A DNA stretch of 64,000 nucleotides from a virus. Taxonomy: Duplodnaviria; Caudoviricetes. The first letter of the stretch is position 1, and each line of letters opens with the position of its first letter. The notes under the pieces were generated by a model. That model had not been told where the DNA came from, did not search any database, and saw nothing but the letters and a program-made list of their open reading frames with translations. Location of the stretch: positions 11,164 to 75,163 of the IMG/VR virus record IMGVR_UViG_3300042914_003272; one strand, given 5' to 3'. Positions 10,989-63,159 of this stretch are shown piece by piece. The position numbers were made by a program, and so were the translations under genes.

Positions 10989-11077
10989 TTTAAATCCTGT
11001 ATTTGTTTTGCTTGCAGTAGTTTTCCTATTACAAAGGCTAACGCCTTAAAAATGGTGATGTTTGTAATTTGTGACTT

Positions 11078-11221
11078 ATGACTACGCTCCTTCTTGACAA
11101 AACTCTCAATCTATTTGCTGATGTTATTGCATCCCTACAACTGGAAACAGAAGAAGACAACTACTATGAAAACGAATATCTCAACTCAGTTGAAAACCGT
11201 TATTCACATTATGGTTTCTAG
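11078..11221 (+). CDS. small acidic hypothetical protein (47 aa)
   Basis: Manual translation MTTLLLDKTL...; between class B motif 11037 and terminator near 11256. Confidence 0.5.
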   Translation: MTTLLLDKTLNLFADVIASLQLETEEDNYYENEYLNSVENRYSHYGF

Positions 11222-11331
11222 GAACTATAAGAATACACTTTAACTACTTCACTTTATCCACCCTATGCGAGTTAGGGTGGATATTTTCTTTTGCGTATGT
11301 GTACAGTTTTATATATATTTTTTGAGCTTAT

Positions 11332-11416
11332 AAATTTCAATAACGTCACTATATTATTTATATATATTTGAGTGGAAATTTGAATAACGTCACTATATTA
11401 TTTATATATATTTGAG
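11332..11416. repeat. 41-bp direct repeat x2 (period 44) in AT-rich intergenic region
   Basis: AAATTT(C/G)AATAACGTCACTATATTATTTATATATATTTGAG at 11332 and 11376. Confidence 0.9.
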
Positions 11417-11551
11417 GGGGCAAACTCAATTTATATATATTATTTTAACCAAAAGAAAAAAGGGGGTGATGCCCTCAATTTTAAACCAATGAAGTTTTTA
11501 TGGGTCGCTACGCTCCCAACTAATTGGTGTAGTTCATTTGGTTATTGGTTT

Positions 11552-11821
11552 ATGTTTACAGAGTTTCTTGCTACACTTTCTGATGCTGATTTGGCGGCTG
11601 TGTTGTGGTCACTAGCTGACTATGACATAACTCCGGATGAAGATTATCCTGAGTATCATGTTCCTGTATCTGTTCAACAATGCTCAGAGATTCTTGAGAG
11701 CAGATGGGTAACTCTTCAAGATATTGAAGAATACCTAGAGATTCGTAAACAAGCTCGGACTCAATCCGAGTTGTGGAACGACCTTATGATTGGGTCGTAT
11801 GACCCATTGGTTGGGTTCTAA
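11552..11821 (+). CDS. acidic early hypothetical protein
   Basis: Start moved to ATG 11552 because the class A motif lies in the longer ORF's 5' part. Confidence 0.6.
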   Translation: MFTEFLATLSDADLAAVLWSLADYDITPDEDYPEYHVPVSVQQCSEILESRWVTLQDIEEYLEIRKQARTQSELWNDLMIGSYDPLVGF

Positions 11822-11904
11822 CTTATTAGGGAATGGATAAACCATTCCCTTTTTTTATGGTCGCTACGCGCCCTAATTGTGGCGTAGTTAACCAAGTTAA
11901 ATAT

Positions 11905-12468
11905 ATGTCTGACCCAAGGTTTGAGGTCTTATATATCCCTGAGTGGGGATGTACAAGCAAAATTAGTGTATATTTAATCGCAGTTCCCAGTTACCTGGGA
12001 GACAAGCTTTGTTCATATTTGCAGCATCACCGATGCAAGTTCCAACAGCGTTGGAGCATTCAGCGGTTAAATCGTTGCGAATTTTTTGTGGAGGAAATTC
12101 CTTCACAAGTCTTAGACGCAATTTGTGTGAGAACCCTTGCCAACCAAGGCAAGGTTAATTTAGGCGTTAACTTTCAGGTTTGCCTCAAGGCCTGCCCAGT
12201 AACAGGAGAGCAACTGCTCTCTATTAAAGTCAATGGTAAAGATATCCCCGCTAGTGGGGACGACATGGATGATTATGAGTGGTGGCTTGCTCAAAATAAC
12301 TTAGACCTCAAATTAAAGCCACTCATAGAAATGGCAGTTGACTCCGCTGAGTGCGATATCGCATTCTATTACGACACTAGGGTCAACCTCAATTTAAGGG
12401 AATTACTTGAATCTTGCGGTTTCGAGTATTCTCCTGAAGAGGAGGCTATGAGATTTTGTAAGTCATAA
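11905..12468 (+). CDS. early hypothetical protein
   Basis: Start moved to ATG 11905 (after class A motif 11863). Confidence 0.6.
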   Translation: MSDPRFEVLYIPEWGCTSKISVYLIAVPSYLGDKLCSYLQHHRCKFQQRWSIQRLNRCEFFVEEIPSQVLDAICVRTLANQGKVNLGVNFQVCLKACPVTGEQLLSIKVNGKDIPASGDDMDDYEWWLAQNNLDLKLKPLIEMAVDSAECDIAFYYDTRVNLNLRELLESCGFEYSPEEEAMRFCKS

Positions 12469-12553
12469 GTACAGGGGCAATTGCCCCTTTTTTTTATGTG
12501 GGCTACGCCCTGTCTAGTAATTGTAGTTAGCAAAATAACGGTTTATAAAAGAT

Positions 12554-12910
12554 ATGGATTACTCAGTCTTTTTCTGCTTGGTTTTAATACTTGCATTGTT
12601 TGCTTGCATGACCGCGGATATAATTCTTGACCTTGAAGTGATTTGGAGTAACGCTGGACAAGTTCAATTACCAGAGACTGAAGTTAATATAATTGAATTA
12701 GCCAAGGAACAAATGATTCCTAAGCTTCCAATCCCTGGCTCTGACCTTTGGGCAAACCTAGATGCTCAATTTGAGCAATCTAAGTGCAAGGAACTAGATT
12801 ACAACTCCCTAACAGTTAGGGAACTGAAAGGTATAGCCAAACAAAGGGCTATACCCAAATATGGCAGCATGAGAAAGTCTGAGTTGATTGCAGCTTTGCA
12901 GTCACAATAA
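12554..12910 (+). CDS. Rho-termination-factor N-terminal (Rho_N/HeH) domain protein with N-terminal TM
   Basis: YNSLTVRELKGIAKQRAIPKYGSMRKSELIAAL. Confidence 0.8.
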   Translation: MDYSVFFCLVLILALFACMTADIILDLEVIWSNAGQVQLPETEVNIIELAKEQMIPKLPIPGSDLWANLDAQFEQSKCKELDYNSLTVRELKGIAKQRAIPKYGSMRKSELIAALQSQ

Positions 12911-13099
12911 CTTCCTGGGGGTGAAATTCCCCCCGTTTGTCTTTCGCATGGACAAGGCTAACGCCTGATAGGTTTTGATGTTAGTCTTGTCTGATTATGG
13001 GGACTACAAATGCGGATACACTTGAGATATTGGAATGGGAGATACAAGAGGTAAACACGACAAAACAGAGCATCCTATAAACCAAGCTAAAATAAACCC

Positions 13100-13449
13100 A
13101 GTCAAAGAACCTCTTTAACAATTTAAATATTCAGTTGTCTAGACAGTGGGCTAAAACAATATAGGTAATCAGGTTTTACAACCAACTTGCAATCAGAACT
13201 TTAGAGTTCCCAACTAATTCTTTACTTTAATTGAGGGTCTCTCAACCAAGTCCCGGTTTCCCAGGTAAGGCAGAACTTTAGCCCGGTGTCCTCACGATTG
13301 CTTAAAGGACTGTTTACCAAGTCTGAACTCTATCCGGCATTTCGTCTGCTAACCAAGCCTAGTTCCTCACTAGCTCTACACTTCAAAGCCTCAAGAGCCT
13401 TACATCGTGGTGGTTTGCGTCTACTCACTCGTAGTTAGTTCAACCAAGT
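13100..13449 (-). ncRNA. candidate structured non-coding RNA
   Basis: No long ORF, several hairpins (CUAGU-GAGGA-ACUAG, CCUGG-GAAA-CCGGG), repeated CUUGGU, sigma70 promoter upstream; 3' end uncertain. Confidence 0.45.
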
Positions 13450-13455
13450 AAATAC

Positions 13456-13485
13456 AATATAGCAGACTTTGTGGTTAAGTGACAA
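13456..13485 (-). promoter_or_regulatory. sigma70-type promoter
   Basis: TTGTCA-18 nt-TATATT with extended -10 TG. Confidence 0.6.
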
Positions 13486-13568
13486 GTCTTGCAGCTTGTT
13501 GTTCTGGCAAAGCTATTTTTATGGTCGCTACGCTCCCTATATATAGTTGTAGTTAACGAGGTTTGGTT

Positions 13569-13748
13569 ATGAGAATCACATTTAAACTGTCAGCACTGAA
13601 TCGTATTCACTTGGCTGGGAAACAAGAACTCATGAATCTGGCAGAGTTCTACGAGGTTGAGGGCTATGAGGATATGAGCATGGAAATGCTAAGGGAAGCC
13701 CTTGAGGAGGTAAAGTCCTCATTTAATGAGGACGGTTACAGAGAGTAA
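13569..13748 (+). CDS. small acidic Rho_N-like protein
   Basis: KQELMNLAEFYEVEGYEDMSMEMLREALEE has the Rho_N hydrophobic pattern. Confidence 0.55.
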   Translation: MRITFKLSALNRIHLAGKQELMNLAEFYEVEGYEDMSMEMLREALEEVKSSFNEDGYRE

Positions 13749-13829
13749 ACAATTGGAGGGCATTGTCCCTCCTTTTTTTATGGTCGCTACGCTCCCTATA
13801 TATAGATGTAGTTAATTCAGGTATTGATT

Positions 13830-14033
13830 ATGTTGGTCTTAAGTTATTTCGATATTTATTCTTATGATTTGTCCACTCTCAGACATTTTGCAAAGCTTGA
13901 CCAGATAAAGGGTTTTGAGGATATGAGTTGTGAAGAACTCAGAGAAGCTTTGGAGGAGGAAGGTCAGAGACTCGCCAGAGAAGGTGATGAAGCCTTGTCA
14001 AAGTTTGAGGAATCAAAGGAAGTGTTTGGTTAA
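13830..14033 (+). CDS. small acidic Rho_N-like protein (paralog)
   Basis: LSTLRHFAKLDQIKGFEDMSCEELREALEE; same promoter and terminator (GGAGGGCATTGTCCCTCC) as the previous gene. Confidence 0.55.
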   Translation: MLVLSYFDIYSYDLSTLRHFAKLDQIKGFEDMSCEELREALEEEGQRLAREGDEALSKFEESKEVFG

Positions 14034-15462: not shown

Positions 15463-15515
15463 GCATACAAAGTACAAGGCTAACGCCTTATAAGCAGTGA
15501 AGTATCAACACAACA

Positions 15516-15746: not shown

Positions 15747-15799
15747 AGATTTTTATGGTCGCTACGCTCCTACTTTGTAGGTGTAATTTATGGTGGTTT

Positions 15800-16700: not shown

Positions 16701-16774
16701 CCTGTTGGCGTTAGCAAGTACAAGGCTAACGCCTAATTACTTTTGGTGGAAATTAACTAATCGGAGAAAAAGAA

Positions 16775-19302: not shown

Positions 19303-19350
19303 GGGGCGACTGCCCCATTAGAATTGAAGTATTAGCAAAATAAAAGGAGT
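19303..19350 (+). promoter_or_regulatory. class B promoter variant + GCAAAATAAA leader + RBS for MERGSGR peptide
   Basis: GGGGC-GACT-GCCCC, TTGA 10 nt after core, TAGCAAAATAAAAGGAG. Confidence 0.7.
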
Positions 19351-19355
19351 TTCTC

Positions 19356-19379: not shown

Positions 19380-19480
19380 TTGACTGGAAGCACCCTATTC
19401 CTAGTGTTTTTATACTAAGAATAGGGGGCAAGGCTAACGCCTAATTAGTTGTGAAGTAAAATAAATTTGGAGAATATGTT

Positions 19481-23686: not shown

Positions 23687-23752
23687 TGGTTAGTAGTATC
23701 ATAAATAAAGGGGTTAACACCCCAGTAGCAGTGATGTAGTTAAAAGATTAAA

Positions 23753-24935: not shown

Positions 24936-25017
24936 AGTTTAGTTTTAGTCTTATAAAGTATTATATTTGTAAGGCTAACGCCTTAATAATGGTGACGTAA
25001 TCAAGGAATTAGAACTT

Positions 25018-29038: not shown

Positions 29039-30877
29039 TTACTTCCTGAACCCTGCTATTCTTCCTGTTCTAACTAATTCCCTACCCGCTAACAGTGCAG
29101 CCCCGGCGGCTAACGCCCCAGTAGGTGTGACAGAATAACCCATGACTGACAACTCTGGTCCATTAATTCCATCCATAGTTCCTTTAATTAATCCCCCAGT
29201 AGCATCTCTCAGGAAGTTATCATCTTTATTACGTAAATAGTCCTGATACTTCTGATACTGTTCATAGGGGATATCAGTCCGCTCCTGTCTAAATTGCTCC
29301 CAAGGAAGTAGCTTACCTCTTTTACCTAACAATCCTCTATCAATTAATAACTCGGACAGCGGTGATGTAGAAATACGTGGGTCATCCTCATCAGGATTAA
29401 TAGCTTGATATCCTGCAACCCTACCGCCTTCACCCAGGTTAAATGGGTTATAAATTTGAGAGCCTAATTCTAATCCTGTAACAGCAGCAAATGGAACTAC
29501 GACCTTTGCCATCCTACTTGCATCTTCACCTAAGAACTTAGAACCGTGAGTACCCACAAAATCCGCAGGGTGTATAGTCCATAAGACTTGACGACTGCCA
29601 TTCCCTATTACGTCACCTGCTACTCTACCAACCCCAAATCCCACTCTACCTTCATTTTGTAAATGGGCATATTGACTTTCAGGTGCGCGATTCCAAGCTA
29701 CTGATGCAGAACGTCCAGGATGTTTACCAGCCTCTACGGCATAATCAAACCCTCTCTTAGTTCCATGCCACACATTCCCCCACCAACTACCAGTATCAGC
29801 CACTTGTCTTGCCTTGTCGTTTAGATGTTGTTGACGGGCTTGATTAAATTCTTCCCCATCAAAGTCATAGTTACCACCACCTGTGGGGGGTTTAGGGGGA
29901 ATACTCCCACCACCTCCACTCATAGGAATACCGGAAGAAGTAGATACAGCTTTACTTCCAGGGTAAACACTACGATTAATACCACTCTCAGGAGTCCCTT
30001 CTGGTATGGGTAGTGGGCTATAAGATACGGTTTCTGGAACTACACTAAACCCCGGCTGTGTTGATAATATGCTCACAACGTCTGGGGCAATTGCCCCATT
30101 ATCTGTAGGGATAGTTGTTACAGTTCCCGGAACTTCTTGGGGGGTAGGTTGAGGTTGTGAATTTAAAAAGAGATTATCTAAATCATTTAAGATTGCTTCG
30201 GATTCAGCATTATTAGCAAGAGGAGACGATTGTACAAGAGGGGTTTCAGGAATGGGTTGACTTACCACACCTTGAGGAGCATTGACTTTCCTGGATTCTA
30301 AATACGATTGGATTTCAGGTTTGAGAGCATACCTACCTCTTTCTCCTAGTGTTTCATCAAAAATTGCATACTTCTTTGGGACTACCCTATTTCCTTCAGG
30401 AGTTAATACTTGAATTAACCCTCTCTTTTTTAGTTCATCAAAGAAAGCATTTCCTTTTCCTCTGAACTGCTCTCTCATTGCTTGCTCCTCTTCTAAAGGG
30501 ATAAAAATATCACCTTCAATTCGCATTGCACCTTGAGGAGCTTTAGCAGAACGTCTTTGAGAATTAATCGGAGCATTTTCAGGAACAAATTCCGTATCTA
30601 TGTCACCACCTGATACTGCTTCTTCAACTCTTCTTCTTTCTGGTTTGTACCCAAATCTTTTAGCTTGTCTTTCTATTTCTAACAAATAGTTTTTTTGTTC
30701 TGCATTTCTCATTGCCTGTGCTTCTACTAATTGTTCAGCGGCAGGAAGATGCGAGAAAAACTCATCATAATGAGAAGCGGGTAGCTGAACAAAGTAATCA
30801 TCAAGCTGCTGTTTTGTCCCACTCAGCCATGCGGCAACGTCATCAGCAGATGTAAGTGTTGGTATCCTAAATGTCAT
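29039..30877 (-). CDS. hypothetical virion protein
   Basis: 612 aa, Pro-rich linker, C-terminal hydrophobic helix. Confidence 0.55.
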   Translation of the reverse strand: MTFRIPTLTSADDVAAWLSGTKQQLDDYFVQLPASHYDEFFSHLPAAEQLVEAQAMRNAEQKNYLLEIERQAKRFGYKPERRRVEEAVSGGDIDTEFVPENAPINSQRRSAKAPQGAMRIEGDIFIPLEEEQAMREQFRGKGNAFFDELKKRGLIQVLTPEGNRVVPKKYAIFDETLGERGRYALKPEIQSYLESRKVNAPQGVVSQPIPETPLVQSSPLANNAESEAILNDLDNLFLNSQPQPTPQEVPGTVTTIPTDNGAIAPDVVSILSTQPGFSVVPETVSYSPLPIPEGTPESGINRSVYPGSKAVSTSSGIPMSGGGGSIPPKPPTGGGNYDFDGEEFNQARQQHLNDKARQVADTGSWWGNVWHGTKRGFDYAVEAGKHPGRSASVAWNRAPESQYAHLQNEGRVGFGVGRVAGDVIGNGSRQVLWTIHPADFVGTHGSKFLGEDASRMAKVVVPFAAVTGLELGSQIYNPFNLGEGGRVAGYQAINPDEDDPRISTSPLSELLIDRGLLGKRGKLLPWEQFRQERTDIPYEQYQKYQDYLRNKDDNFLRDATGGLIKGTMDGINGPELSVMGYSVTPTGALAAGAALLAGRELVRTGRIAGFRK

Positions 30878-32691: not shown

Positions 32692-32750
32692 ACCATCAAA
32701 AGTATAGGGGCGATTGCCCCATTAATAGTGAAGTAATTTGTGAAGTAATT

Positions 32751-34082: not shown

Positions 34083-34460
34083 ATGCTGGATAGAATTGCT
34101 TTAAATCTAATTTCTTGTGGGTACATTTTTGTCAAAGAGTCCTGTGGGAAGTATTATGGCTACCCAGAAGACCTCCGTTGGTTCGGACATGGTGAAGCTA
34201 TTTACGCTTTACCTCTACTCGATTTTCCTCAGATTGAGGATGAAGAAAATTATGTAATGCCTGAAGAGGGTATCACCGACCCTTATTGGGTAAGAAAGAA
34301 TGGTGAGGATACTTATTCTTATACATCTTCCAGGATATACGAATCGAGCATTCCCGTTCTTTCCGAAGAAGGCGAACCTATTTACGCAGTTAGACGGGAA
34401 CTGATGTCCCTGGAATCTCAGTTTATCGCTGAGGTTTGGCAAAGGGATGTACAAGGCTAA
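34083..34460 (+). CDS. hypothetical early protein
   Basis: GGAGG RBS before ATG 34083; after class A motif 34025. Confidence 0.6.
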   Translation: MLDRIALNLISCGYIFVKESCGKYYGYPEDLRWFGHGEAIYALPLLDFPQIEDEENYVMPEEGITDPYWVRKNGEDTYSYTSSRIYESSIPVLSEEGEPIYAVRRELMSLESQFIAEVWQRDVQG

Positions 34461-34578
34461 CGCCTAAATAGGATTGAACTAACTCACTTCAATTTGACTT
34501 AGGTTGAATTGAAGTGAGTTATTTTTATGTGGGCTACGCGTTTTTGTGGAGTTGTAGTTAAATAATTGAGTTGAATGT

Positions 34579-34755: not shown

Positions 34756-34824
34756 GGGATGTACAAGGCTAACGCCTAATCAGTTTTGAGTTAAGTTTTG
34801 AGTTAAGTTCAGTACAGGGAAGTT

Positions 34825-35031
34825 ATGAAAGCAGAAAAAATAAATCAAAAACTAAAACAAAAACCTTTTGTCGAAAAGAGTGAAGAGGGCATTGCCTTAT
34901 ATTGGGTAGTAAAAGGCGGGAAGTTTCGACTAACAAACTTCCACCCATGCGAGGCTCTTGCATGGGGCGAGTTCTGGGGTGCTGTAAATATTTATGCAGA
35001 TGATTCTGCGTCGGTTGACTGGGAAGGCTAA
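34825..35031 (+). CDS. hypothetical protein
   Basis: After class B motif 34768. Confidence 0.5.
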   Translation: MKAEKINQKLKQKPFVEKSEEGIALYWVVKGGKFRLTNFHPCEALAWGEFWGAVNIYADDSASVDWEG

Positions 35032-35192
35032 CGCCTAAATAGGATTGAACTAACTCACTTTGATTTGACTTAGGTTGAATTGAAGTGAGTTATTTTTATG
35101 TTCACTTTGTGCTGATTTAAACAAAAACCCCTTAGTAGCTAGTTTGGTCGCTGTCTACTAGGGGGTCTTTTATCTAACATAGAGTCTATTCC

Positions 35193-37604
35193 ATGTCTAA
35201 GCTCATTCTAAAACAGTATGACCTGGTTAGTCAACAGTGGCTACCAGAGCATTGCAAGTCAACTTACCACAACACAATGTTGGGGCATCTATTCCCTAAC
35301 GTTAAGTTTGCTATCGGTGATGTGGGTAGTTTATTAGCTGATGAAAATCCCAATATAGAATACATCTCTGAAGTTCTTGACAAAGGCTTTGAAGAGTATG
35401 TATTAGTCGGTGGTAGTGGTAGTAGAAAACAAGGCAAGGCAATCTACTCAACATCAGAGTTTGACTGTTTTACCAGATTTTTTGGTAGCAATATGAATGC
35501 TGCCAACTACGGTTCTAACTTAACAACTGAATGTAAGTTGATTAAGGATATCAGCATTAAGCTGCTAGTAGTTGATGACGGTGATAGCAAGTCCCGCAAG
35601 TACCGCACAGGTGATTGTCACGGGAAATGTTCTGAGAAGTTTGCTATGGAGTTTGTGGATTCCATATTCAATCCATTCCAGTTTAGGGCTTTCAATATCA
35701 ACCCTGATTGGTGTGCAAAGGGTACGATTGCAGTTGGTTTTAAGAAAGGTAAGTATGACCTTGTTTTACCTACGTCCTGTTTTAAGGGCAATAAGGTTAA
35801 ACCTGGGGAGTATGAGTTGGCTAAGTTGGCTTTTGGTGTGGTGTTTAAGTCACCATCCCTAAAAAGGTGGACCGAGACTCATGACATTCTAGGGCTTCAA
35901 CTAGAGCGTGAGATGTGTGGTTACGACTACCGCAAGTCTAATCTTTCATATTCAGTAGTGCAGTTTCTGCCTTGGGATGCAGTGTGGGAAGACATAGTTC
36001 CCAATGCACAAAAACAGGCACAGGAACTTAACACCCTAGTCAGCAACCCTCAGAGGTTGTTAGATTACCTCCTGCGGAAAGGAGATGAAGGTAAAGGTCA
36101 AGAGAAATCTCGGTTAAGTCAGATTTTAAAGTCTGACGTACACGGTCAGCTATCTACCCACCCATGGGCTATCAAGGCAACTATGGGAATGTTGAGTAGA
36201 AGATGGCGTGAGATTGCTACATCAGGTGGAATTAAGTTTAACTCATCTATGGTGATGCCAGATGAGGAATTACCAGATAACTCCTGTTACGTTCCAGGGT
36301 TAGCAGATGGTGAAGAGGTAATCGTATTTCCCTATCCTTGCCGTTGGAAGTACGACATCAAGGTATGGACAAATCACATACTCCCTAAGTGGGAACAGAT
36401 GGAAGGAGTTATTGTAGGTAACTGCAATACTCTAATGAAACTTGGTAGAGATACCGACGGCGATTTTCTTATGTGGCTACCAGCATCTAAGTTACCTCAC
36501 GTAGCTCAAGTTGTTAAGTCTTTTGGTGAACCTGACCTAGACCAGGCAGGGTTAAAGCCTAAGAAGATTCCCATTGAAGGCACTCTAGGACAAATTCTGG
36601 TTAAGAGTATGGAAAACTTAACTGGTCTGATAACCTACTACATAGCCAAATCCTGGGCGTGTAAGAGGGAAGACTTTGTTTTCCAGTTAGTTCCACAACT
36701 TCAAGCAGCAGTTGATTCCCTCAAAGGTGCATTACCACCTGACAGAAAATTAATAGGTTCTATTGGTAATGCACTCAAATCTCAACGAGTTGACTGGTTG
36801 AAACAGGTCAAGGATGACGACTGCTACCTATTCTACCAGATGTCATCACGGAGTAATGATACTGTAGGACTGTTGATAGCAGAGGTCAACAAGCTTTGGG
36901 TTAAGCCTGAGTTGAAGGCAACTAACCTTAGACCATTCAATGTTTTATTCTCACACCTCAATCCTAGCAAAAAGTGGATTGAGAGGGCTGAGGTTGTGTC
37001 TAACGAATATTCATCTGCCATGTATGCTGCCGGATTAGAACAACGTAGGTGGGAAAAGGCTAATCCAGGGAAGAGAGTTCCCAGAATTGTTAAAGAACGC
37101 AGATTATCTTCCCAGAAAGATATCTGTAAATACTATGAGGGGATACTTAACCATTTACCCCCTGCACAGAGGATGATGGCTGTAGCCGCTTTCTGGGACG
37201 TCAAACACAGGAATAACAAAACTGGTATTCCTAATCCTCAAGCCAAAGACCACGAAGACAGGGTAGGCTTCTCAACTAACATCTGTTTTTTGCTAGGCAT
37301 AGAACAGATATGTGAGCAGCTTCAGGAATTGAGGATTGACACACTCAATATTGTAGGCAGGACTTACTCAGACTTCCGCAATCATATTTTCAAAGGTGAA
37401 ATGATTGTCATTACCATTGAGTCAGGCATTGGTAATGACGGAAAGCATTATTTCTTTGCCAAGTCCAATGGTTATAGCATTGGTGTAATCCCAGTAAAGG
37501 ACACGCCACCTATTAAATTTGGAGATGAGATAGTGGTTTATCTCCACACCAGGTTTGATAAGGTAGGACATCCGAGTTACAACGAGGCCTTTCTTGTGAA
37601 GTAA
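35193..37604 (+). CDS. single-subunit two-barrel RNA polymerase (YonO/QDE-1 RdRP-like family)
   Basis: Catalytic GRDTDGDF (DxDGD, ~36444-36467), GDCHGKCS (cf. DGxGxIS), FQFRA..AKG (cf. FQIR..GxKG), late Q.AVD..K motif. Confidence 0.8.
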   Translation: MSKLILKQYDLVSQQWLPEHCKSTYHNTMLGHLFPNVKFAIGDVGSLLADENPNIEYISEVLDKGFEEYVLVGGSGSRKQGKAIYSTSEFDCFTRFFGSNMNAANYGSNLTTECKLIKDISIKLLVVDDGDSKSRKYRTGDCHGKCSEKFAMEFVDSIFNPFQFRAFNINPDWCAKGTIAVGFKKGKYDLVLPTSCFKGNKVKPGEYELAKLAFGVVFKSPSLKRWTETHDILGLQLEREMCGYDYRKSNLSYSVVQFLPWDAVWEDIVPNAQKQAQELNTLVSNPQRLLDYLLRKGDEGKGQEKSRLSQILKSDVHGQLSTHPWAIKATMGMLSRRWREIATSGGIKFNSSMVMPDEELPDNSCYVPGLADGEEVIVFPYPCRWKYDIKVWTNHILPKWEQMEGVIVGNCNTLMKLGRDTDGDFLMWLPASKLPHVAQVVKSFGEPDLDQAGLKPKKIPIEGTLGQILVKSMENLTGLITYYIAKSWACKREDFVFQLVPQLQAAVDSLKGALPPDRKLIGSIGNALKSQRVDWLKQVKDDDCYLFYQMSSRSNDTVGLLIAEVNKLWVKPELKATNLRPFNVLFSHLNPSKKWIERAEVVSNEYSSAMYAAGLEQRRWEKANPGKRVPRIVKERRLSSQKDICKYYEGILNHLPPAQRMMAVAAFWDVKHRNNKTGIPNPQAKDHEDRVGFSTNICFLLGIEQICEQLQELRIDTLNIVGRTYSDFRNHIFKGEMIVITIESGIGNDGKHYFFAKSNGYSIGVIPVKDTPPIKFGDEIVVYLHTRFDKVGHPSYNEAFLVK

Positions 37605-43459: not shown

Positions 43460-43498
43460 GAATACATGGGGCTAACGCCCCTTTAGTGGTGAGGTATC

Positions 43499-43822
43499 TT
43501 GGAAGTAACAATGTTAATAAGAAAAGAGAACACTCAGCTTACACTTAAAAAACATGGTGAAGATGAAAATGTTGTAATAGAATTTTCATTGATGGACAAA
43601 AAGGTTGTTTTAACAATTCACTTTTCCCATCAGAATTTAAGTACCAGGATTTATGACAATAGGTATGCAACTCTTGAACATTATCAACGGCTAATTCCAT
43701 TAGCTGCTGAAATAATTAAAGGTCGGGAAGAGTTTATTAAAGAACCATGTGGCTTTCTAGAACAACAGTCTTGGAAAGTTCAAAGCTTAGAAGACAAAGA
43801 GAATGCAATGCTAACGCATTAA
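43499..43822 (+). CDS. hypothetical protein
   Basis: After class B motif 43471; likely start ATG 43511. Confidence 0.55.
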   Translation: MEVTMLIRKENTQLTLKKHGEDENVVIEFSLMDKKVVLTIHFSHQNLSTRIYDNRYATLEHYQRLIPLAAEIIKGREEFIKEPCGFLEQQSWKVQSLEDKENAMLTH

Positions 43823-43906
43823 TAGTTATGAAGTAAAAGTAAAACCCCTCTTAGAAATCTCCTAGGAGGGGCTTTTGATGTTTGATAATTGTAGGAGTAT
43901 TATATC

Positions 43907-44639: not shown

Positions 44640-45143
44640 ATGGAATATCGCGCAATATCACTGCATCAACCTTGGGCTTCTCTTGTTGCTTTGGGAATTA
44701 AGAGGTATGAGACTAGAAGTTGGAGTACAAAGTTTAGAGGAAAACTTCTAATTTGTTCTGCAAAGAAAAAGTACGTACCAGATATTAGCTTTGTAAATAA
44801 AGTTTTCGACTTAAAAGATGTAAGACAATTTGACAGAACAAGGCTAGACTTTATTGGTACGAACACAGAGTACGTAGAATTTCTTCCTTTGGGAAAAATC
44901 CTTTGCGTAACTGACTTAGTTGATTGCTTAAAAATGGAATCTTACCCTAAACACAAAGAAAATATAATTCTTGAAGACGTTCCAGAATTAGAACAGCTTT
45001 GTGGCGACTGGCAAGCAGGTAGATACGCATGGGAATTAGCTAATCTCATGACATTACCCAAACCTATTCCTATTAAAGGGAAACAAGGTTTATGGATTCC
45101 TGATAGTTCAATTATTCAAGACATTGAAAAACAATTTCAATAG
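44640..45143 (+). CDS. ASCH domain protein
   Basis: AISLHQPWASLVALGIKRYETRSW..FRG.LLI..PIPIKGKQGLW. Confidence 0.9.
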   Translation: MEYRAISLHQPWASLVALGIKRYETRSWSTKFRGKLLICSAKKKYVPDISFVNKVFDLKDVRQFDRTRLDFIGTNTEYVEFLPLGKILCVTDLVDCLKMESYPKHKENIILEDVPELEQLCGDWQAGRYAWELANLMTLPKPIPIKGKQGLWIPDSSIIQDIEKQFQ

Positions 45144-45209
45144 GCTAACGCCTAAATGTTTGTGAGGAAATGCAATAATTTCCTCTTTACTCACTTACCA
45201 GTTAAATCC

Positions 45210-45869
45210 ATGAACATTATCATCATTACGCTCACAGTTAACTTTGTAGAATCCTTTACTGATATCCCTGGGCAACAACCATTTTCAATTGCTCAGTGTA
45301 GTTATCTTCAAACTGACAAAGACGGTAATCCTATAGAACACTTTGTGACTATTAAAGGATTTAATAACTCCTACGATAAAACCTCTTCTGGCATTACCTC
45401 TGATAGATTAAGTTTATTTAAGCCAGGAATGAAAATGCTTGTTACAGGTCAATTATTTACTGAGCAAAAAGATAAGGAAACTAAACAAGTTATTGAACAG
45501 CCTTATATACTTGCCCATTCAGTTTGTCCAGTTAAGGCAGAAGTCAATTACAATACCATTTATCTTGCAGGTAAGATGATGAAAATGCCTGAAAAGAGAA
45601 TTTATGAAAGTGGCAAACTGTCTATCACTACTTCACTTTTAATTAAGGAAGGGAGGAAGGGGTATTTCTACAACGTCACTGCTTGGAATAAGCAGGGTGA
45701 AACAGTAGAAAGATATTGTCGCAAAGGTGAGAATCTTGGGATTGAAGGCACTTTAGTTTTTGAATCCTGGAATGACAAGACCACTGGTGAACCCAGGACT
45801 GGCATTAAGATTACTGCTAATAAAGTGCGACTGATGGGAAGTAAAGATTCAAAAGATGATGAGTTCTAA
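45210..45869 (+). CDS. ssb: single-stranded DNA-binding protein (tandem OB folds)
   Basis: C-terminal OB fold: VTAWNKQGE...KG..LGIEG.L..ESW.DK.TGE.R; acidic DDEF tail. Confidence 0.8.
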   Translation: MNIIIITLTVNFVESFTDIPGQQPFSIAQCSYLQTDKDGNPIEHFVTIKGFNNSYDKTSSGITSDRLSLFKPGMKMLVTGQLFTEQKDKETKQVIEQPYILAHSVCPVKAEVNYNTIYLAGKMMKMPEKRIYESGKLSITTSLLIKEGRKGYFYNVTAWNKQGETVERYCRKGENLGIEGTLVFESWNDKTTGEPRTGIKITANKVRLMGSKDSKDDEF

Positions 45870-45954
45870 GCTTACGCTTTACTAACTGTGATGAACAAAA
45901 TAAGCCCTGTTATAATTAAATTATAGCAGGGTTTTTAACTAGCAAAATAAACGA

Positions 45955-47595: not shown

Positions 47596-47702
47596 CAAAG
47601 AATATAAGTTAATTTGTTAACACCTTTCATAATCATTGGGGCAATCGCCCCTTTGATTTTGATGTACAATGTTTACTAGCAAAATAAACAGAATCAATAG
47701 TT

Positions 47703-48320: not shown

Positions 48321-48395
48321 CCAAGAAGGCTAACGCCTTAATAGTAGTGGAGTAACTAAAGGTAATTATGACTGAGGGTAAATATTGTATCAACC

Positions 48396-48737
48396 ATGAA
48401 AACTAAACTGGTAATTGACTGCACAATCAAAGGTAATTTGTATCAACAAACGGTCAATGACCTCATTGACTTAGACAAGTTTATAGCCACACATCAAGCT
48501 CCTGAATACTTATTCTTTCATCCTGAGTACACAGCTTCCTTTAAGTTGTGTACAAAAGACATCTCACGATACTATTGTGAGTTTGCAGTGGCTGATAGAA
48601 AGTATGAGATTAAAACTCTGCAAACTTTATTGTTTTGTTTAGGTGATAATGTAGATGTTAAGGGTATTCCCTTGTTCTTTCAAATAGGGAATAGTTTGTT
48701 TGAAGTGAGTGCTAATGGGCTAACGCCCAACTGGTAG
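48396..48737 (+). CDS. hypothetical protein
   Basis: After class B motif 48329. Confidence 0.55.
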   Translation: MKTKLVIDCTIKGNLYQQTVNDLIDLDKFIATHQAPEYLFFHPEYTASFKLCTKDISRYYCEFAVADRKYEIKTLQTLLFCLGDNVDVKGIPLFFQIGNSLFEVSANGLTPNW

Positions 48738-48753
48738 TGATGTAGTTTTAAAG

Positions 48754-51834: not shown

Positions 51835-51928
51835 AACTGTTAACCTGTTTATTTTGCTATTAAATCTTCAATGCCAATAAGGCAATAGCCTATGATGTTT
51901 AATTCATAGGCTACTATAAATAGTATAA

Positions 51929-52193: not shown

Positions 52194-53285
52194 TTACGCC
52201 ACATTCCTTAAATTACTCAATACTTTGTTTTTGTCTGCAAGCATATTGGGGAAATTGTCAGGGAATGTTTTACTAATCCACAATTCCCAGACATCTATCT
52301 CAGCTTGAGATTTGGTGTAATGGAACTTAGATAAGTCACATTTACATTCCAAATATTCTTTGTATTGAGTTTTTACCCAAGCCCAAGAGGTTTTAACCCA
52401 TGAAGGAAGATTATCTATTTCCTTCAACACTCTAGCGGCGTTAGCCGCAGGTGATGTGGTGTACTCCTGGAAATCCAACATCATGGCTTCAATTAAAGCT
52501 AAACCCTGCTCATCATATTCTCGTTTAGCAAGCCATATCATAACTTGACCAGAAGTAATTTCTTTGCCTTCGTAATGCGGTGTCCTGGGTAGATAAACTT
52601 CTTTAAGGTATTTAACTACGTCAGGTTTATATTGGTGTTTGCCAAGACTAGTCCTCCAAGGCTGCAAGGGTTTAGGCTTCCATTTGTCCTCAAACTTCTG
52701 GGTAGAAGAATAAGTGTTTTGTAGTGGAAGTGGTTGGTATTCTAGAGGTACTGAGGGTGGAAGTGTTGGTATTGAATCTACTACTGGAAACTCCTGTAGT
52801 GGACTAGCCATCTCGCGCACAGGGAAATCCAATACTGGTAAGAGTTCTAACTCTTTTATCTCTTCTACTTGCATACCCTCAAACCCTGATTCTACCGTTG
52901 TAGGCTGGTCTAGTATGTCTGTACTGGGATTACAAGTTTCTATAATCAGCTTGAACAAACCAGAGATATCTAACTTATAAAGAATGTTTTGTTTAGACCC
53001 TACTTTCTTTTCCTCAAGAATACCTAATGCTTTTAGTTTTTTGCGGGCTGCATCTAACTCTCTGCGAGTGAGATAGGTAAGTTCATGCCATTGCTGGTAG
53101 GTTTTTTCAAGCCACTTATTCTCTTCCTTTATAGCTTGTGTCCAGTGGTAGAGTTGGCTTAGGAACAATCCCTCTGTTGCTCCACCACCTACTCTTGCAA
53201 AGATTTGATGAAAGCTGATGGGAGAAGAAAGTAGACTAGAAATTAAATTAAATGTTGTCGAATTAAAATCTTGTGCTATATTCAT
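52194..53285 (-). CDS. putative replication initiator (phage O-like N-terminal wHTH)
   Basis: ISFH..FARV.GG...GLFLSQL..W...W..KT..QW..LT.L.RRE...ARKKL...G.LEE; upstream of dnaB. Confidence 0.65.
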   Translation of the reverse strand: MNIAQDFNSTTFNLISSLLSSPISFHQIFARVGGGATEGLFLSQLYHWTQAIKEENKWLEKTYQQWHELTYLTRRELDAARKKLKALGILEEKKVGSKQNILYKLDISGLFKLIIETCNPSTDILDQPTTVESGFEGMQVEEIKELELLPVLDFPVREMASPLQEFPVVDSIPTLPPSVPLEYQPLPLQNTYSSTQKFEDKWKPKPLQPWRTSLGKHQYKPDVVKYLKEVYLPRTPHYEGKEITSGQVMIWLAKREYDEQGLALIEAMMLDFQEYTTSPAANAARVLKEIDNLPSWVKTSWAWVKTQYKEYLECKCDLSKFHYTKSQAEIDVWELWISKTFPDNFPNMLADKNKVLSNLRNVA

Positions 53286-53738: not shown

Positions 53739-54105
53739 AGAGAATATAGTTAGGGGTATAACTGAACCAAGGCAAAAGCTATCAACCTTGGTATGAGTTG
53801 GGTACGAACCAACTTGAGATTGACCGCTTTTGCTTAAATTCCGTTTATTTTGCTAATAAACCTGCCGTTAACTGCGGTGGGTTTTTTTTTCTACTTTACT
53901 ATAGCATCACTTTAGACACATGGGAAGTGATTTGGCTCAGTTATATTTACTACTTTTGATAGATGATTCTATTTTTAAACAGTGCATTTAACTAGAATGT
54001 TACACCAATGCAATATTGTTGCAGTCAGGCTAGAAGTGATATAGCATGAATGCAAGGCTAACGCCTTAGTGATTGTGAAGCAAAATAAACGGATAGGTTT
54101 GGACA

Positions 54106-54378
54106 ATGTTGCAAACTAAACAAGACCTTTTACTAGACCTTCTTCAGGATGGTCAATGGCATTACTCAGATGAGCTTTCCAAAATTGCTGATGCCAGATA
54201 CGGTGATGCAGTTCACAAGTTACGGAAAAAGGGATGTAATATTCTTATTCTGAAAGAAGGTAGTTGTAGTTCTTTACCTAAACTCTCTCAGTCTGGGCAA
54301 AAATCTTATTACAGACTGGCTAACGCCAGAGAAATGGTGATGGAAACTTTAGGGAATCAGTTGAGTTTGTTTCACTAA
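54106..54378 (+). CDS. HTH domain protein
   Basis: LLDLLQDGQWH...EL...RY..AVH.LRKKG. Confidence 0.6.
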   Translation: MLQTKQDLLLDLLQDGQWHYSDELSKIADARYGDAVHKLRKKGCNILILKEGSCSSLPKLSQSGQKSYYRLANAREMVMETLGNQLSLFH

Positions 54379-54950: not shown

Positions 54951-55133
54951 TGCGCGGCTAACGCCTTAGTAGTTGTGAGGGAGTTTTAGCTTTAGCTCTG
55001 CAAAGCATAAAATTCCCTTTTGATTTATCTGTACTTTCCTCAACACTTATGAAGCGTTAGCTTCCTTAACCTTGAGGAATAACTTCTCAACAAGAATCAC
55101 AAAGTCTTATTTAGAATCACAAGGAACAAAAGA

Positions 55134-56021: not shown

Positions 56022-56128
56022 ATAAACCACAAGGGAGGCTACAAGGTCTCCCTTAATTATTTAACTAGTTGAATAAATGGCTAACGCCTTAGTGTTGGTG
56101 ATAGAAATTAGAGGAAGAGGAACAGACA

Positions 56129-57111: not shown

Positions 57112-57204
57112 CAATTAAGGTGTTAGTTGAGTTAAAGAACTTGGCTAACGCCAATTTAGTAGTGATGAAAGATGTTCTTGTTTTAAAAGGATGGGATTAA
57201 AATA

Positions 57205-58367: not shown

Positions 58368-58449
58368 CTAATTTGTTCTTCCTCGTTAGGGAAGAACAAG
58401 GCTAACGCCTGAATGTTTGTGAAAGTAAAATTAGTTAGGAGTAGTTAAA

Positions 58450-60113: not shown

Positions 60114-60222
60114 AGTGTTCTACCGCTATAACATCTTTGTGGAATTAACCATTGTAGAATAAAAATACAAGGCTAACGCCTTATTTGTGGTGATAAAAAA
60201 AAGATTGAAAGGAGTTTGAATT

Positions 60223-60666
60223 ATGTCCATTTACACAGGTTCTTTACCTGACGTAACTTTTCCTGTTAACGTATCCAACACCGGATTCAATTTAGTCTCT
60301 GTTTCCGACCTAGGTTTAGATGGAGAGGATGACGATGGTATTGCTGGCACAGCTACAGTAAAGGCAGTCTGTTTTAACATCCAGGAAATCCCTGGAATAA
60401 TAAAGGACGCAGGTTGTGAACTTAGCCACAGAATGATGGCAGCATACATTAACCCTGTTTGTTTCAGAGTGGAGAATTCTCATCCTTGGTTCAATAAATT
60501 AGTCCCTCAATTCTACGACTGGAGCTATGTAGAGGTTGAAGTCCTTGGCGTAAAGTTCCTCTCTCAGTCAGAAGACTACCCTTCTGGCATCTATTCCACG
60601 GAGGTAGCTGAATTACTCATTGGGGTTACCAGCCAACGTCTTAATCAATTAGATAGATATATCTAA
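60223..60666 (+). CDS. hypothetical protein
   Basis: AAGGAG RBS after class B motif 60172. Confidence 0.6.
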   Translation: MSIYTGSLPDVTFPVNVSNTGFNLVSVSDLGLDGEDDDGIAGTATVKAVCFNIQEIPGIIKDAGCELSHRMMAAYINPVCFRVENSHPWFNKLVPQFYDWSYVEVEVLGVKFLSQSEDYPSGIYSTEVAELLIGVTSQRLNQLDRYI

Positions 60667-60670
60667 AAAA

Positions 60671-60718
60671 ATGAGTGTGATTATTCTCTTGACAAGTATC
60701 ACACTCATAAGATATCTT
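60671..60718 (+). promoter_or_regulatory. sigma70 promoter overlapped by 11-bp inverted-repeat operator
   Basis: ATGAGTGTGAT..TTGACA..ATCACACTCAT; TTGACA-18-TATCTT. Confidence 0.5.
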
Positions 60719-60758
60719 TTCATTATGAGTTCCAAGAACTGCTGAGAACTGTTAACCA

Positions 60759-61049
60759 ATGAAAGCCATAAACGGGGATTCAATAGAGTCCCCAACTATT
60801 TACACCAGGACAGAAGCAGGAATGGAGTTAGTACCTCCGGTGTCTGCTAGACAAGTTCAGGAGTATTTAAACATAGCCCGATTATTTATTCCAGGGTTTG
60901 ATGTGTTTAATGGTTTAGAAGGTGGGTTATCAAATGCCCCTATTAAACCAATTCACATTCCCACCCTACAAAAGATACGGGAATACGTCAGAGAAACCAA
61001 GAGTTTAGTTAAGGCAAGAATTAAAATCGCGGAGGAATATAAGAAGTGA
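60759..61049 (+). CDS. putative DNA-binding protein
   Basis: YTRTEAG.EL...VSARQVQEYL HTH-like pattern. Confidence 0.5.
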   Translation: MKAINGDSIESPTIYTRTEAGMELVPPVSARQVQEYLNIARLFIPGFDVFNGLEGGLSNAPIKPIHIPTLQKIREYVRETKSLVKARIKIAEEYKK

Positions 61050-61612
61050 AGTTAAGTGATGCAGCAAAGATTTTAAATACTCCAGTCAGGGAGTTAATTG
61101 ACAGAATGACCAAGGCTGTTCCTGAAACAACATGGAAAGCCGATACGGTTCTTCCTCAAGAATTTGTTGAGCAATTAAACGTTTACTCTCAAGAATATCA
61201 GCAAGTAGTTGGATTACCCAAGCAAGAAGCTCAAAACGCTATTGAAGCTGTGGGTGAGTCTAAGCTAGTTCTTGAGTCTTTAGACTATGCCATCCTAGAG
61301 TCTTTAGCTGATGAAAGGACTTACCAACTATTAGTTGAATCAGCCCACCAAGCTGTTGACGACTACCAACAAGCCAAAGTCGTTTACTCAGAAATTATTT
61401 CTCAATTAGCATCTGAAGATATCAATGCCTTACAGGAAAGACGTAAATCCTTTGATGCCAAGATATCTCAATCTGCTATGAGTCGTTCTAAGACCTTGGG
61501 GGAGTTGCAAGGGAGATTAGCGGTTCAGTCCCAAGGTCTCCTAACCACCCGTCAGAACTCACAAGACTTGAAGAATCAAATATTGCAAGCGGCATTAGGG
61601 CATCAACCCTAG
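61046..61612 (+). CDS. HTH + coiled-coil protein
   Basis: MKLSDAAKILNTPVRELI N-terminal HTH-like; long coiled coil. Confidence 0.55.
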   Translation: MKLSDAAKILNTPVRELIDRMTKAVPETTWKADTVLPQEFVEQLNVYSQEYQQVVGLPKQEAQNAIEAVGESKLVLESLDYAILESLADERTYQLLVESAHQAVDDYQQAKVVYSEIISQLASEDINALQERRKSFDAKISQSAMSRSKTLGELQGRLAVQSQGLLTTRQNSQDLKNQILQAALGHQP

Positions 61613-61632
61613 AGGGTCTAACGCCCCAGGAA

Positions 61633-63107
61633 TTGCGAAGGGTTGCAATTTTGTTAACAGATGTTGAAATACAGGAAAGAAAAAAGAAGATGTTTAATGA
61701 TGTTTTGGCAGGTGTACTGGGATTAAGTAGTATTGGCGGTAGCATTGCCACTCTTAGTTATTGTACTGCATCTATATCAGTGGCTACTGGTGGTGCAGTT
61801 CTATTCCCTCTAGGGATAGTTTTATTTGCTGGTTTAATTTACGCAGGTAAATGGAGTAAAGGAGAGTTGAGGTAAGTGAAAAAACGCACACAGGTCTACA
61901 AAGAACAAGAATTAATAACTGACATCAACATAGACAACCCTAACTTTTGGAGTCTTCTTAACAAAGATAATATGACTAACGCATTAGCAATTAGCATAGT
62001 TATCTTAGTTATTAGCCTCTCCTATTCAGCTATTAGACAACCAACAGCATCTAGAGTTTCTGATAATCCAGTTCAAAAGGTAGGTGCTTATGACAAGCAG
62101 GAGTAGTCACAGACCTGATTTCATCAATAATCTGTTCCCTGTAATAATTACTTGGGTGGCAACAGGCTGGATGATACTTGATTCATCCTTTACAATAAGC
62201 CGTGCCTTTGATGCTTTCAAACCACCTAATTTCTTCCTTAGATTGTTTGTGGCTGTAGCCTTTGGAGTAAGTTGTGCATTTGCTCAAAAGGTTTTGTTTG
62301 AACTACTAGTAGATTCAGACAAAAGGAAGCAATGGGTAGTAACCCCTTTTGAAAGTGGTATGCTACCCAAGTTGTTTCTTATTGTAGTTGCTGGTTTAGC
62401 TGTCTACCTTATCCACTTTAGTTGGATGGCTACTGGTAATTCATTGGGAATGACTAAAGGTGTATTTGCAATTCCCAACTTTGGGCAAAAAGAATTAATA
62501 GACATTTCCACTTATATCACTAGCATTTTTAGTGGATTGTTCATAGCATTCATTGATGAAATACTTTTTCTCTTTGCAACAATATTAGAACCAAGGAAGT
62601 AAACAAATGGCATTTATAGTTTATCTGGCATTAGGAATGTGTGTACTAGGTTTCCTCCTAGCTCTTGATAGAACAAGTAATAAGAAATTAGACCGCAAAA
62701 TTAAAGGCAAAAATATCTCTATGCCTAACCTTGAAATTATGTTTGGGAATAAGAAAAAAAGAAGATGAGATTAATTAAATTAGTTGCATCAATTATCATT
62801 GCAGCTAGTTCCCTTTTTGGGATTTACTACACTCTATGCCTAGCCGCTTACACAACTTCAACCACTCAAGAATATGTTAGAAAATAATGCAAAAGAAAGT
62901 GTAAAACCTAATTTATTTATAGTAGGAACGGTTGGCTTTTACAAGTTCTTAATAAGTTTAAACCCCAAATCATTAGCGGTAGGACTTATAGTAGGTTGGC
63001 TAATAATTCCATCTCCTATGGCTTTATTATTCCCTAAGCCAATACAGCAAGCTTTAAAGAATGTGAGTTGTGGGGTTAACAAAGTTTATCAAAGGTTGGG
63101 GATATAA
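61633..63107 (+). CDS. cluster of six small membrane proteins (61633-61875, 61876-62106, 62084-62602, 62607-62768, 62765-62887, 62874-63107)
   Basis: Each has 1-4 hydrophobic helices; abutting or overlapping; two found by manual translation. Confidence 0.6.
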
Positions 63108-63159
63108 CCCCGCACACAGTTAATGGGGCAATTGCCCCAACAGTAGTGAGGTTGATTAA

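Follow-up and report, generated by a model that had tools for sequence, protein, structure and literature searches.

The closest described counterparts of the element reported here are the promoters of bacteriophage N4. According to PMC4496689, N4 promoters are conserved from −17 to +1, require gyrase and single-stranded DNA-binding protein (SSB), and carry a hairpin centred at −11, which has a sheared G:A pair in its loop and stem bases that are free to vary as long as they pair. A 2026 review (PMC13037366) gives the N4 promoter hairpin as the transcription example of DNA mini-hairpins, extraordinarily stable structures with the consensus GCGNNAGC or GCGNAGC; GCGTTAGC was itself measured, and such mini-hairpins bind SSB poorly. 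Here we describe a repeated element, Class B, whose main core reads GCGTTAGC on the template strand and which recurs along the genome of a freshwater cyanophage (Duplodnaviria; Caudoviricetes). The window, i.e. the whole stretch of DNA analysed, is 64,000 nt long and comprises bases 11164–75163 of the 75,163-bp viral record IMGVR_UViG_3300042914_003272 (CheckV completeness 99%). Coordinates are window positions unless marked genome; G000–G007 and L-numbers are labels of compared genomes and loci.

Hairpin promoters have a precedent in N4, whose reader is a T7-like enzyme; new here is a candidate reader of the two-barrel type. Promoters of single-chain two-barrel phage polymerases are largely unknown. 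The main text on P23-45 describes polymerase-specific conserved motifs, AT-rich and GC-rich, upstream of mapped starts and does not use the word ‘hairpin’; the early transcripts of crAss gp66 share no motif, and the 2017 paper on YonO left its promoter undefined. Both gp66 and QDE-1 prefer single-stranded DNA templates. In a literature search whose coverage lacked most subscription journals, we found no publication joining a cyanophage, a two-barrel polymerase and a hairpin promoter. The Class B element is a sharply defined, many-copy candidate. Our preferred reading, to which we assign a probability of roughly 0.6, is that Class B elements are promoters of the phage's own 803-aa two-barrel polymerase, with an unrelated enzyme following an N4-like hairpin logic.

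Copy number, anatomy and spacing of the element

We counted 33 occurrences of the octamer GCTAACGC in the window, 29 on the plus and 4 on the minus strand, against an expectation of 0.52; no more than 3 were obtained in any of 100 shuffles. A copy of the element was defined by a 4-nt loop, at least three contiguous Watson–Crick pairs and a downstream-box score of at least 5. By this hairpin-plus-box definition there are 37 Class B copies in the 75,163-bp genome, 34 of them in the window and 33 within 11034–63149, and the outermost of the 33 coincide exactly with both ends of that span. The preliminary description, which had counted about 30 GC-TAAC-GC mini-hairpins there, was close to these numbers.

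The full element is ~30 nt long and consists of a 5-bp stem, a 4-nt loop, 7 nt and the box [G/T]TGA.GTA; the consensus of the aligned copies is aaGGC-TAAC-GCCt.A.tAGTtGTGA.GtAa. In the profile of copies from −70 to +75, conservation is limited to about −5 to +25, and no conserved motif was seen upstream, from −70 to −6. Thus, if the elements are expression signals, the signal sits within the element itself. Among plus-strand cores, TGA starts 11 nt past the core ([G/T]TGA 10 nt past it) in 21 of 31, as had been proposed for most copies, and every other offset is represented at most once. Coincidence of box and hairpin is also far above expectation: a box score of at least 8 is reached at 140 of 150,226 positions on both strands, and 30 of these coincide with one of the 795 hairpin positions having a 4-bp stem and 4-nt loop (~0.7 expected).

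Many phages redirect the host polymerase by means of a phage factor (PMC4496689). The elements might accordingly be promoters of the multisubunit RNA polymerase of the host, redirected by a sigma-like protein or an activator of the phage with the inverted repeat as its binding site. We consider this very unlikely. The box resembles neither a −10 nor a −35 element, and start codons as near as 10–22 nt leave no room of the −35 type; no register of the box weight matrix gives both conserved positions (A2, T6) of the sigma-70 −10 element. Matches of the sigma-70 type are not enriched (23 versus 34.2 ± 5.2 and 23 versus 30.9 ± 5.3), and no sigma-like gene was seen among the open reading frames (ORFs) scanned, many ORFs lying outside that scan.

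Covariation of the stem

Covariation was assessed at 34 of the 414 GC-N4-GC sites, chosen by GC-N4-GC and the box only and hence independently of the outer stem. Watson–Crick pairing is present at stem pair 3 in all 34 sites, at pair 4 in 30 (AT 16, GC 10, CG 2, TA 2) and at pair 5 in 25 (GC 12, AT 9, TA 3, CG 1); none of 5000 permutations reached the values of pairs 4 and 5, although these and the following statistics are upper bounds on significance because related copies are not fully independent. The variable positions, with four pair types in use at each of pairs 4 and 5, need only be complementary. The next position out pairs in 2 of 34 sites only; therefore the stem is exactly 5 bp long. 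When pairs were counted in the gapless alignment of the 37 copies, 92.4% of cells were paired (35–52% in slid controls), four of the five pairs were changed on both sides, and the covariation score was 0.412 versus 0.136 (0 of 500 shuffles). In the outer stem, structure is conserved and not sequence, as the preliminary description had maintained; all the stems that it listed (AAGGC/GCCTT, GGGGC/GCCCC, AATGC/GCATT, TTGGC/GCCAA, CTGGC/GCCAG) were recovered.

Compensation is seen between orthologous copies as well. The copy at 23710..23734 (+) reads GGGGT-TAAC-ACCCC, with GTGA after 7 nt, and its closing pair is compensated with respect to the G001 and G002 orthologs (GGGGC-TAAC-GCCCC; flanks 98% identical). 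The copy at 43807..43831 (+; AATGC-TAAC-GCATT, ATGA) has AAGGC..GCCTT as its G002 ortholog, and the minus-strand copy at 55040..55064 (GAAGC-TAAC-GCTTC, TTGA) is replaced in G002 and G003 by GGGGC-AATC-GCCCC. Loop and stem trade off: copies with G-N-N-A loops on the template strand (28 of 37) have on average 3.25 G:C pairs and the nine others 4.67 (Mann–Whitney p 7e-5), seven of these nine having all-G:C stems.

A dimeric DNA-binding protein that recruits the host enzyme would conserve its half-sites and not let them covary. An RNA hairpin, on the other hand, fits the covariation and the loop/stem compensation equally well. The element could act in RNA, where the hairpin C(UAAC)G and the box would form a processing, stabilisation or protein-binding site on long transcripts and set mature mRNA 5′ ends; a phage or host endoribonuclease recognising a short hairpin would be an example of the agent. 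We regard such a role as unlikely. The real promoters would then be invisible, given that nothing is conserved from −70 to −6 and sigma-70-like sites are not enriched; a search of Rfam gave no family match for the element, and to our knowledge the sense-strand cores are not a recognised stable RNA loop.

Strand of the hairpin

On the template strand the core is GCGTTAGC, i.e. GC-GTTA-GC, and the proposal that it forms a DNA mini-hairpin agrees with the extraordinary stability documented for this octamer in the review text (PMC13037366). The main core conforms to the mini-hairpin consensus on that strand, as do the G-N-N-A copies; the nine copies with other loops do not. Of the 34 unbiased sites, 24 have TAAC as the sense-strand loop and none has GTTA (GTTA is present in 1 of 38 box-carrying sites). 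This asymmetry relative to the box implies that a symmetric cruciform alone is not what is read, and it counts against a protein that would bind the inverted repeat on behalf of the host polymerase. The cores of Class B, of a second hairpin class (Class A, below) and of the distant relative G005 all fit the DNA consensus GCGN(N)AGC on the template strand, a point against action in RNA. As a whole, the strand evidence, drawn from sequence, favours a template-strand DNA hairpin.

Wobble asymmetry in the stems was tried as a test of RNA versus DNA and of sense versus template strand, and was rejected since the counts were uninformative.

Gene context

On a crude ORF map, 25 of the 34 window copies are intergenic; another five reach into the upstream ORF by no more than its final codons, and the TAA of the loop often serves as the stop codon of that ORF. 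For 23 of 33 copies, the next ORF on the same strand starts 10–79 nt past the box, usually with a Shine–Dalgarno-like GGAG in between. Copies point in the same direction as the genes: those on the minus strand stand before minus-strand genes (dnaB, and the head of the tail operon), and orientation tracks local gene direction even at isolated minus-strand genes within plus-strand blocks, such as the dnaB operon. A location in 5′ leaders suits an RNA-level site too, and so do the many overlaps with an upstream ORF end, as read-through RNA would include these elements.

The hairpin GGGGC-GATT-GCCCC at 32707–32720 and the hairpin at genome 7238, outside the window, lie between divergent genes and have [G/T]TGA on both strands at standard spacing. 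In the former, the plus half is 32707..32731 (GTGA) and the minus half, which heads a minus-strand operon, is 32696..32720 (−; GGGGC-AATC-GCCCC, TTGA). A third hairpin between divergent genes, at 2688 (GGGGC-GATT-GCCCC), has a standard box on the plus strand only. Both-strand boxes in divergent intergenic regions of ~100 nt leave little room for the two upstream promoters that a processing site would call for.

Three further roles, namely single-strand DNA-priming signals like GCGTTAGC at the St-1 and alpha-3 primase origins, boundaries of recombination or mobile cassettes, and terminators, are together highly improbable in our view. A priming role would be in line with the identical one-strand octamer that marks those origins, as given in the review text (PMC13037366). 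The phage also encodes DnaB, a replication initiator, SSB and a UvrD-like helicase. In T4-type phages, repeated promoter cassettes are recombination sites. Orientation along gene direction and positions tied to start codons misfit replication polarity, however, and orthologous copies keep their individual stems at 74–81% flank identity, which argues against recent mobility. As for termination, most copies lack a T-run after the stem, and no transcript should end between divergent genes; a few minus-strand readings of GGGGC hairpins are terminator-like.

Upstream of the polymerase gene, two elements are directly followed by strong terminators. The copies at 34453..34477 and 35024..35048 (both +; AAGGC-TAAC-GCCTA, TTGA) are each followed, 6 nt past TTGA, by a perfect 19-bp hairpin with a T-run: 34480..34527 (+; −24.9 kcal/mol, z −7.1), which would begin 6 nt into the predicted transcript, and 35051..35098 (+; −21.8 kcal/mol, z −6.65), ~100 nt before the polymerase gene. 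Between them lies the copy at 34765..34789 (+; AAGGC-TAAC-GCCTA, TTGA). Stable hairpins also follow downstream of the element at 43807, where a terminator-like one occupies 43845–43871, and of that at 45141..45165 (+; TAGGC-TAAC-GCCTA, GTGA). Divergent sites, positions at gene starts and promoter-plus-terminator units fit transcription starts, not terminators.

The two predicted ~55-nt units before the polymerase gene (34474–34530 and 35045–35101), each combining a Class B element with the 19-bp perfect hairpin and T-run, differ by changes that preserve pairing via G:U and are conserved in the relatives L009–L012; such a unit could be a small RNA or an attenuator.

The remaining copies are spread over both halves of the window. 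A weak-box copy is present at 7745..7769 (+; GGGGC-TAAC-GCCTG, 7 nt, TCGA). Plus-strand copies with 7 nt between stem and box are located at 11034..11058, 15476..15500 and 24971..24995 (all AAGGC-TAAC-GCCTT, GTGA), 12954..12978 (AAGGC-TAAC-GCCTG, TTGA), 16722..16746 (AAGGC-TAAC-GCCTA, TTGG), 19303..19327 (GGGGC-GACT-GCCCC, TTGA) and 19430..19454 (AAGGC-TAAC-GCCTA, GTGA). Downstream of the polymerase gene, plus-strand copies are found at 43468..43492 (GGGGC-TAAC-GCCCC, GTGA), 45867..45891 (TAAGC-TTAC-GCTTT, GTGA), 47638..47662 (GGGGC-AATC-GCCCC, TTGA), 48326..48350 (AAGGC-TAAC-GCCTT, GTGG) and 48716..48740 (TGGGC-TAAC-GCCCA, GTGA), and the minus-strand copy TAGGC-TATT-GCCTT (51868..51892; TTGA) stands 37 nt before dnaB. 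Further plus-strand copies, all with GTGA, are at 54054..54078 and 60169..60193 (both AAGGC-TAAC-GCCTT), 54316..54340 (CTGGC-TAAC-GCCAG), 54954..54978 (GCGGC-TAAC-GCCTT), 56077..56101 (ATGGC-TAAC-GCCTT), 57141..57165 (TTGGC-TAAC-GCCAA), 58398..58422 (AAGGC-TAAC-GCCTG) and 63125..63149 (GGGGC-AATT-GCCCC). The variant loops GATT, GACT, AATC, AATT and TTAC, as well as the minus-strand TATT before dnaB, had all been reported in the preliminary description and are all present. Its assignment of the element to promoters of middle or replication genes stands in part: the context is promoter-like, but the copies are not confined to those genes, since minus-strand structural operons and the polymerase gene have them too.

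The polymerase and other phage proteins

The 803-aa protein (35193..37604, +) is, judged by its predicted structure, a single-chain two-barrel RNA polymerase of the QDE-1/RDR2/YonO type, and not an N4/T7-like enzyme. The AlphaFold model (pLDDT 87.1, pTM 0.82) was matched by Foldseek to maize RDR2 (7w82, E 2.5e-14), Neurospora QDE-1 (2j7n, E 1.2e-13, TM 0.54), the P23-45-group phage nvRNAPs 8f72 and 8f5m (E ~5e-9), crAss gp66 (6vr4, E 8e-6) and also P23-45 gp96. The modelled double-psi beta-barrel fold is accompanied by the DxDGD metal site: DTDGD (residues 420–424) is invariant in 35 polymerase homologs, seven of which matched the Pfam family RdRP (PF05183), and the ESM Atlas places the protein with RdRP-type clusters. 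The 803-aa protein itself matched no Pfam family, and sequence and profile searches of PDB gave chance-level matches only.

A profile search of the genome detected a single homolog of the polymerase. Two ORFs, of 1884 and 853 aa, were considered as a second polymerase and rejected, as they have no DxDxD motif and no family matches. The 1884-aa ORF lies directly 3′ of the polymerase gene (37805–43459, +) and has no family, Atlas or PHROG match; given its six [NS]RTA[GN] repeats and hydrophobic C-terminal segment, it could be an ejection or virion protein. The phage SSB (45156..45869, +; PF00436 at residues 133–227 after an N-terminal extension of ~130 aa) is a candidate cofactor.

Homologs of the polymerase (24–37% identical) are common in genomes of filamentous cyanobacteria (L199–L214 and others), several of them on Pseudanabaena plasmids and in Microcoleus, Nostoc and Phormidium contigs. 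Elsewhere in the window, a group I intron (Rfam RF00028; 53.4 bits, E 1e-10) at 3877–4116 (−) abuts the 3′ end of a capsid-like ORF (4105–5223), and the major-capsid-like gene may be interrupted by the intron.

Conservation in related phages

Four IMG/VR relatives, with polymerases 78–98% identical, keep the elements at orthologous places. In relatives with polymerases from 98% to 78% identical, octamer counts on the main and the other strand are 24/3, 21/1 and 36/5. The complete 75.7-kb genome G004, whose polymerase is 46% identical, has 20/0 octamers, mostly AGGC-TAAC-GCCT, and TGA stands 10 nt past the core in 14 of 20 copies, the box being 1 nt closer. Spacing is rigid within a lineage; the offset is 11 in G000, G002 and G003. 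In G005 (polymerase 25% identical) we found 10 copies of GATA-GC-TAC-GC-TAYR followed after 7 nt by TGAGT, with an offset of 11 in 10 of 12 cores and a start codon mostly within ~20–35 nt downstream; the G005 element reads GCGTAGC on the template strand. De novo core counts gave no recurrent hairpin core in G007.

Searches among annotated phages with megablast of 10 kb and with tblastn of the polymerase gave no match; only the portal matched, to S-EIV1 (38% identical). S-EIV1, the nearest annotated phage, has neither a polymerase homolog nor the octamer, and the absence of the motif from a phage without the polymerase speaks against a reader supplied by the host. Across IMG/VR, a 24-nt pattern matched 55 contigs: the five with at least two matches all belong to this clade, and the ~50 single-match contigs are near a rough chance estimate.

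Beside distant polymerase homologs in L235, L236 and L238 (Floridaenema, Phormidium and Aerosakkonema), a recurrent GC-TA(A)C-GC is followed after ~10 nt by TGATGAGTT, on the strand opposite to the polymerase gene (L235 18483–20260, L236 16042–16337, L238 15528–15988, all −). The loci L013–L015 (relatives G004, G006 and G005) are rich in GCGATCGC or CGATCG palindromes inside genes, and the phage of the window has few; the difference fits cyanobacterial hosts with different palindrome loads. These repeats were rejected as an analogue of the element, being HIP1-type palindromes inside genes without conserved flanks.

Class A hairpins and the early block

A second hairpin, Class A, consists of a T-run, ATG-G..C-GC-TAC-GC, ~10–12 nt and TGTAGTT; it has 18 plus-strand sites in 11507–20449 and 33944–34539, and GCTACGC occurs 19 times versus 1.6 expected. 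Its 3-nt loop is GTA on the template strand (GCGTAGC, again the mini-hairpin consensus). Class A fills the block of small ORFs as well as the stretch immediately 5′ of the polymerase gene, and its hairpin-to-box spacing is variable (10–12 nt), unlike that of Class B. In 10900–21100, sites with a terminator-like hairpin and T-run number 33 versus 7.7 ± 2.7, nearly all on the plus strand. In many of them, TTTTTTTATG forms the end and a Class A hairpin follows immediately, which gives every small gene the look of a separate terminator–promoter cassette. The abundance of classical terminators in the early block is a point in favour of a redirected host polymerase.

A broader proposal, plausible rather than probable, is that nearly the whole transcription programme is run from extruded template-strand mini-hairpins read by the single-chain two-barrel polymerase. 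There would be two grades of signal: Class A, with the 3-nt loop of GCGTAGC, would serve the early block of small ORFs, and Class B, with the 4-nt loop of GCGTTAGC, the replication and structural genes. With its own gene behind the same signals, the enzyme would have to be delivered in the virion or primed by read-through. If the proposal is true, the N4 hairpin principle was invented independently by an enzyme related to eukaryotic RNAi polymerases.

Possible mechanism and points against it

For Class B as promoters of the 803-aa polymerase, we propose the following mechanism. The 14-nt inverted repeat would extrude in negatively supercoiled or transiently unwound phage DNA. Its template arm would fold into a very stable GC-GTTA-GC mini-hairpin (GCGNNAGC type) with three covarying pairs; the non-template arm, with the TAAC loop, would be less stable and might be opened, perhaps by the SSB of the phage. 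The polymerase would dock on the template hairpin, and the fixed 7-nt spacer would serve as a ruler. We infer a start of RNA in or beside the [G/T]TGA.GTA box, with the G or the A of TGA as the likeliest first position; leaders would then be ~20–45 nt long. Copies with poorer loops (GATT, AATC, AATT and others) would compensate by all-G:C stems, and some would fire both ways.

Several observations weigh against promoters of this kind. At least seven octamer copies have no box and are mostly within genes, so the octamer count overstates the number of full elements. Three copies lie deep inside genes: GCGGC-TAAC-GCCCC (29106..29130, +; Class B-like, GTGA) within a 612-aa minus-strand gene, GGGGC-AATT-GCCCC (30073..30097, −; Class B-like, GTGA) within the 612-aa gene, and GCGGC-TAAC-GCCGC (52424..52448, −; TTGA) within the 3′ part of the replication-initiator gene. 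A cruciform of 5 bp is costly in energy to extrude. By nearest-neighbour DNA energies, the two strands are almost alike (−4.4 versus −3.9 kcal/mol), though such parameters may miss the mini-hairpin bonus, and sense-strand G:T versus A:C wobbles are 1:2, 6:2 and 5:6 at stem pairs 3–5 in 95 unique copies.

Public RNA data (five metatranscriptome runs with parts of the region) are assembled contigs from which starts, ends and strands are not readable, and coverage gaps and contig ends near elements are evidence neither way. One RNA-library contig (X1 record 4, 54313–56065) bridges the elements at 54954 and 55040; hence some RNA, or contaminating DNA, reads across the hairpin, as sites acting within long transcripts would have it. 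Upstream of the polymerase gene there are only hairpin elements, of Class A and Class B, so the first polymerase molecules need another source, either virion delivery or host read-through. Finally, 159 further loci of the polymerase family (2.1 Mb) show no enrichment: TAAC cores number 23 versus 40 in the control and TAC cores 179 versus 223, and the composite of core and box gave 8 matches in 5 loci versus 4 in the control. The signal is therefore lineage-specific and not a rule of the family.

The box-less copies of GCTAACGC are at 7357 (−), 16708 (−), 19051, 28816, 41720 and 43394 in the window and at genome 8972, mostly inside genes; they exceed the number expected by chance for an octamer. 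The one at 41716–41731 has a 6–7-bp stem, and that at 7357 (−) has GTGA one nt further out.

Comparison with known systems

T7-like promoters, like the elements here, are compact phage-specific signals of ~25–30 nt before many genes, with the start presumed in the 3′ part in our case. T7-type promoters have no covarying stems and are recognised as duplex sequence. The enzymes differ as well: the 803-aa protein has no T7-like domain (0 Pfam families) and, in the model, a two-barrel fold. YonO of SPbeta, gp66 of crAss phi14:2 and gp64 and gp96 of P23-45 share the structural superfamily of the 803-aa protein. The main texts on them report no covarying hairpin, in contrast to the covarying hairpin found here.

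The primase origins of St-1 and alpha-3 share the identical octamer GCGTTAGC, which is stable, binds SSB poorly and marks a start of RNA synthesis on DNA, according to the review (PMC13037366). The origins of G4, St-1 and alpha-3 are single sites in single-stranded genomes and use the host primase; the present sites number in the dozens, are tied to gene starts and belong to a phage with double-stranded DNA.

Stems that covary, trade-offs between loop and stem and a ruler that differs by 1 nt between lineages amount to built-in natural mutagenesis, and promoter recognition by the two-barrel class of enzymes becomes directly testable. If the preferred reading is true, the phage offers a compact orthogonal polymerase/promoter pair for cyanobacteria.

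The closest likeness is to the early promoters of N4. Both systems show a short inverted repeat in which complementarity suffices at the non-conserved stem positions, and in both the template strand has a mini-hairpin in which C:G closes a G...A loop (GCGGAGC or GCGAAGC in N4; PMC4496689, PMC13037366). SSB is involved in N4 and is encoded here. A fixed single-stranded ruler sets the start in N4; its counterpart here would be the fixed 7-nt spacer to the conserved box, the rigid hairpin-to-box spacing serving as a proxy only for a fixed start distance. N4 has three promoters, with a 3-nt loop centred at −11 and the stem end at −5, versus ~37 copies here, with a 4-nt loop and 7 nt plus the box after the stem. 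A 3-nt GNA template loop closed by C:G is thus absent from Class B; Class A has a 3-nt GTA loop. The N4 virion polymerase is T7-like, whereas the only phage polymerase found here is of the unrelated two-barrel fold. If the Class B hairpin acts as DNA, it would be convergent with that of N4 and would link RNAi-type polymerases, which prefer single-stranded DNA, to structured DNA start signals.

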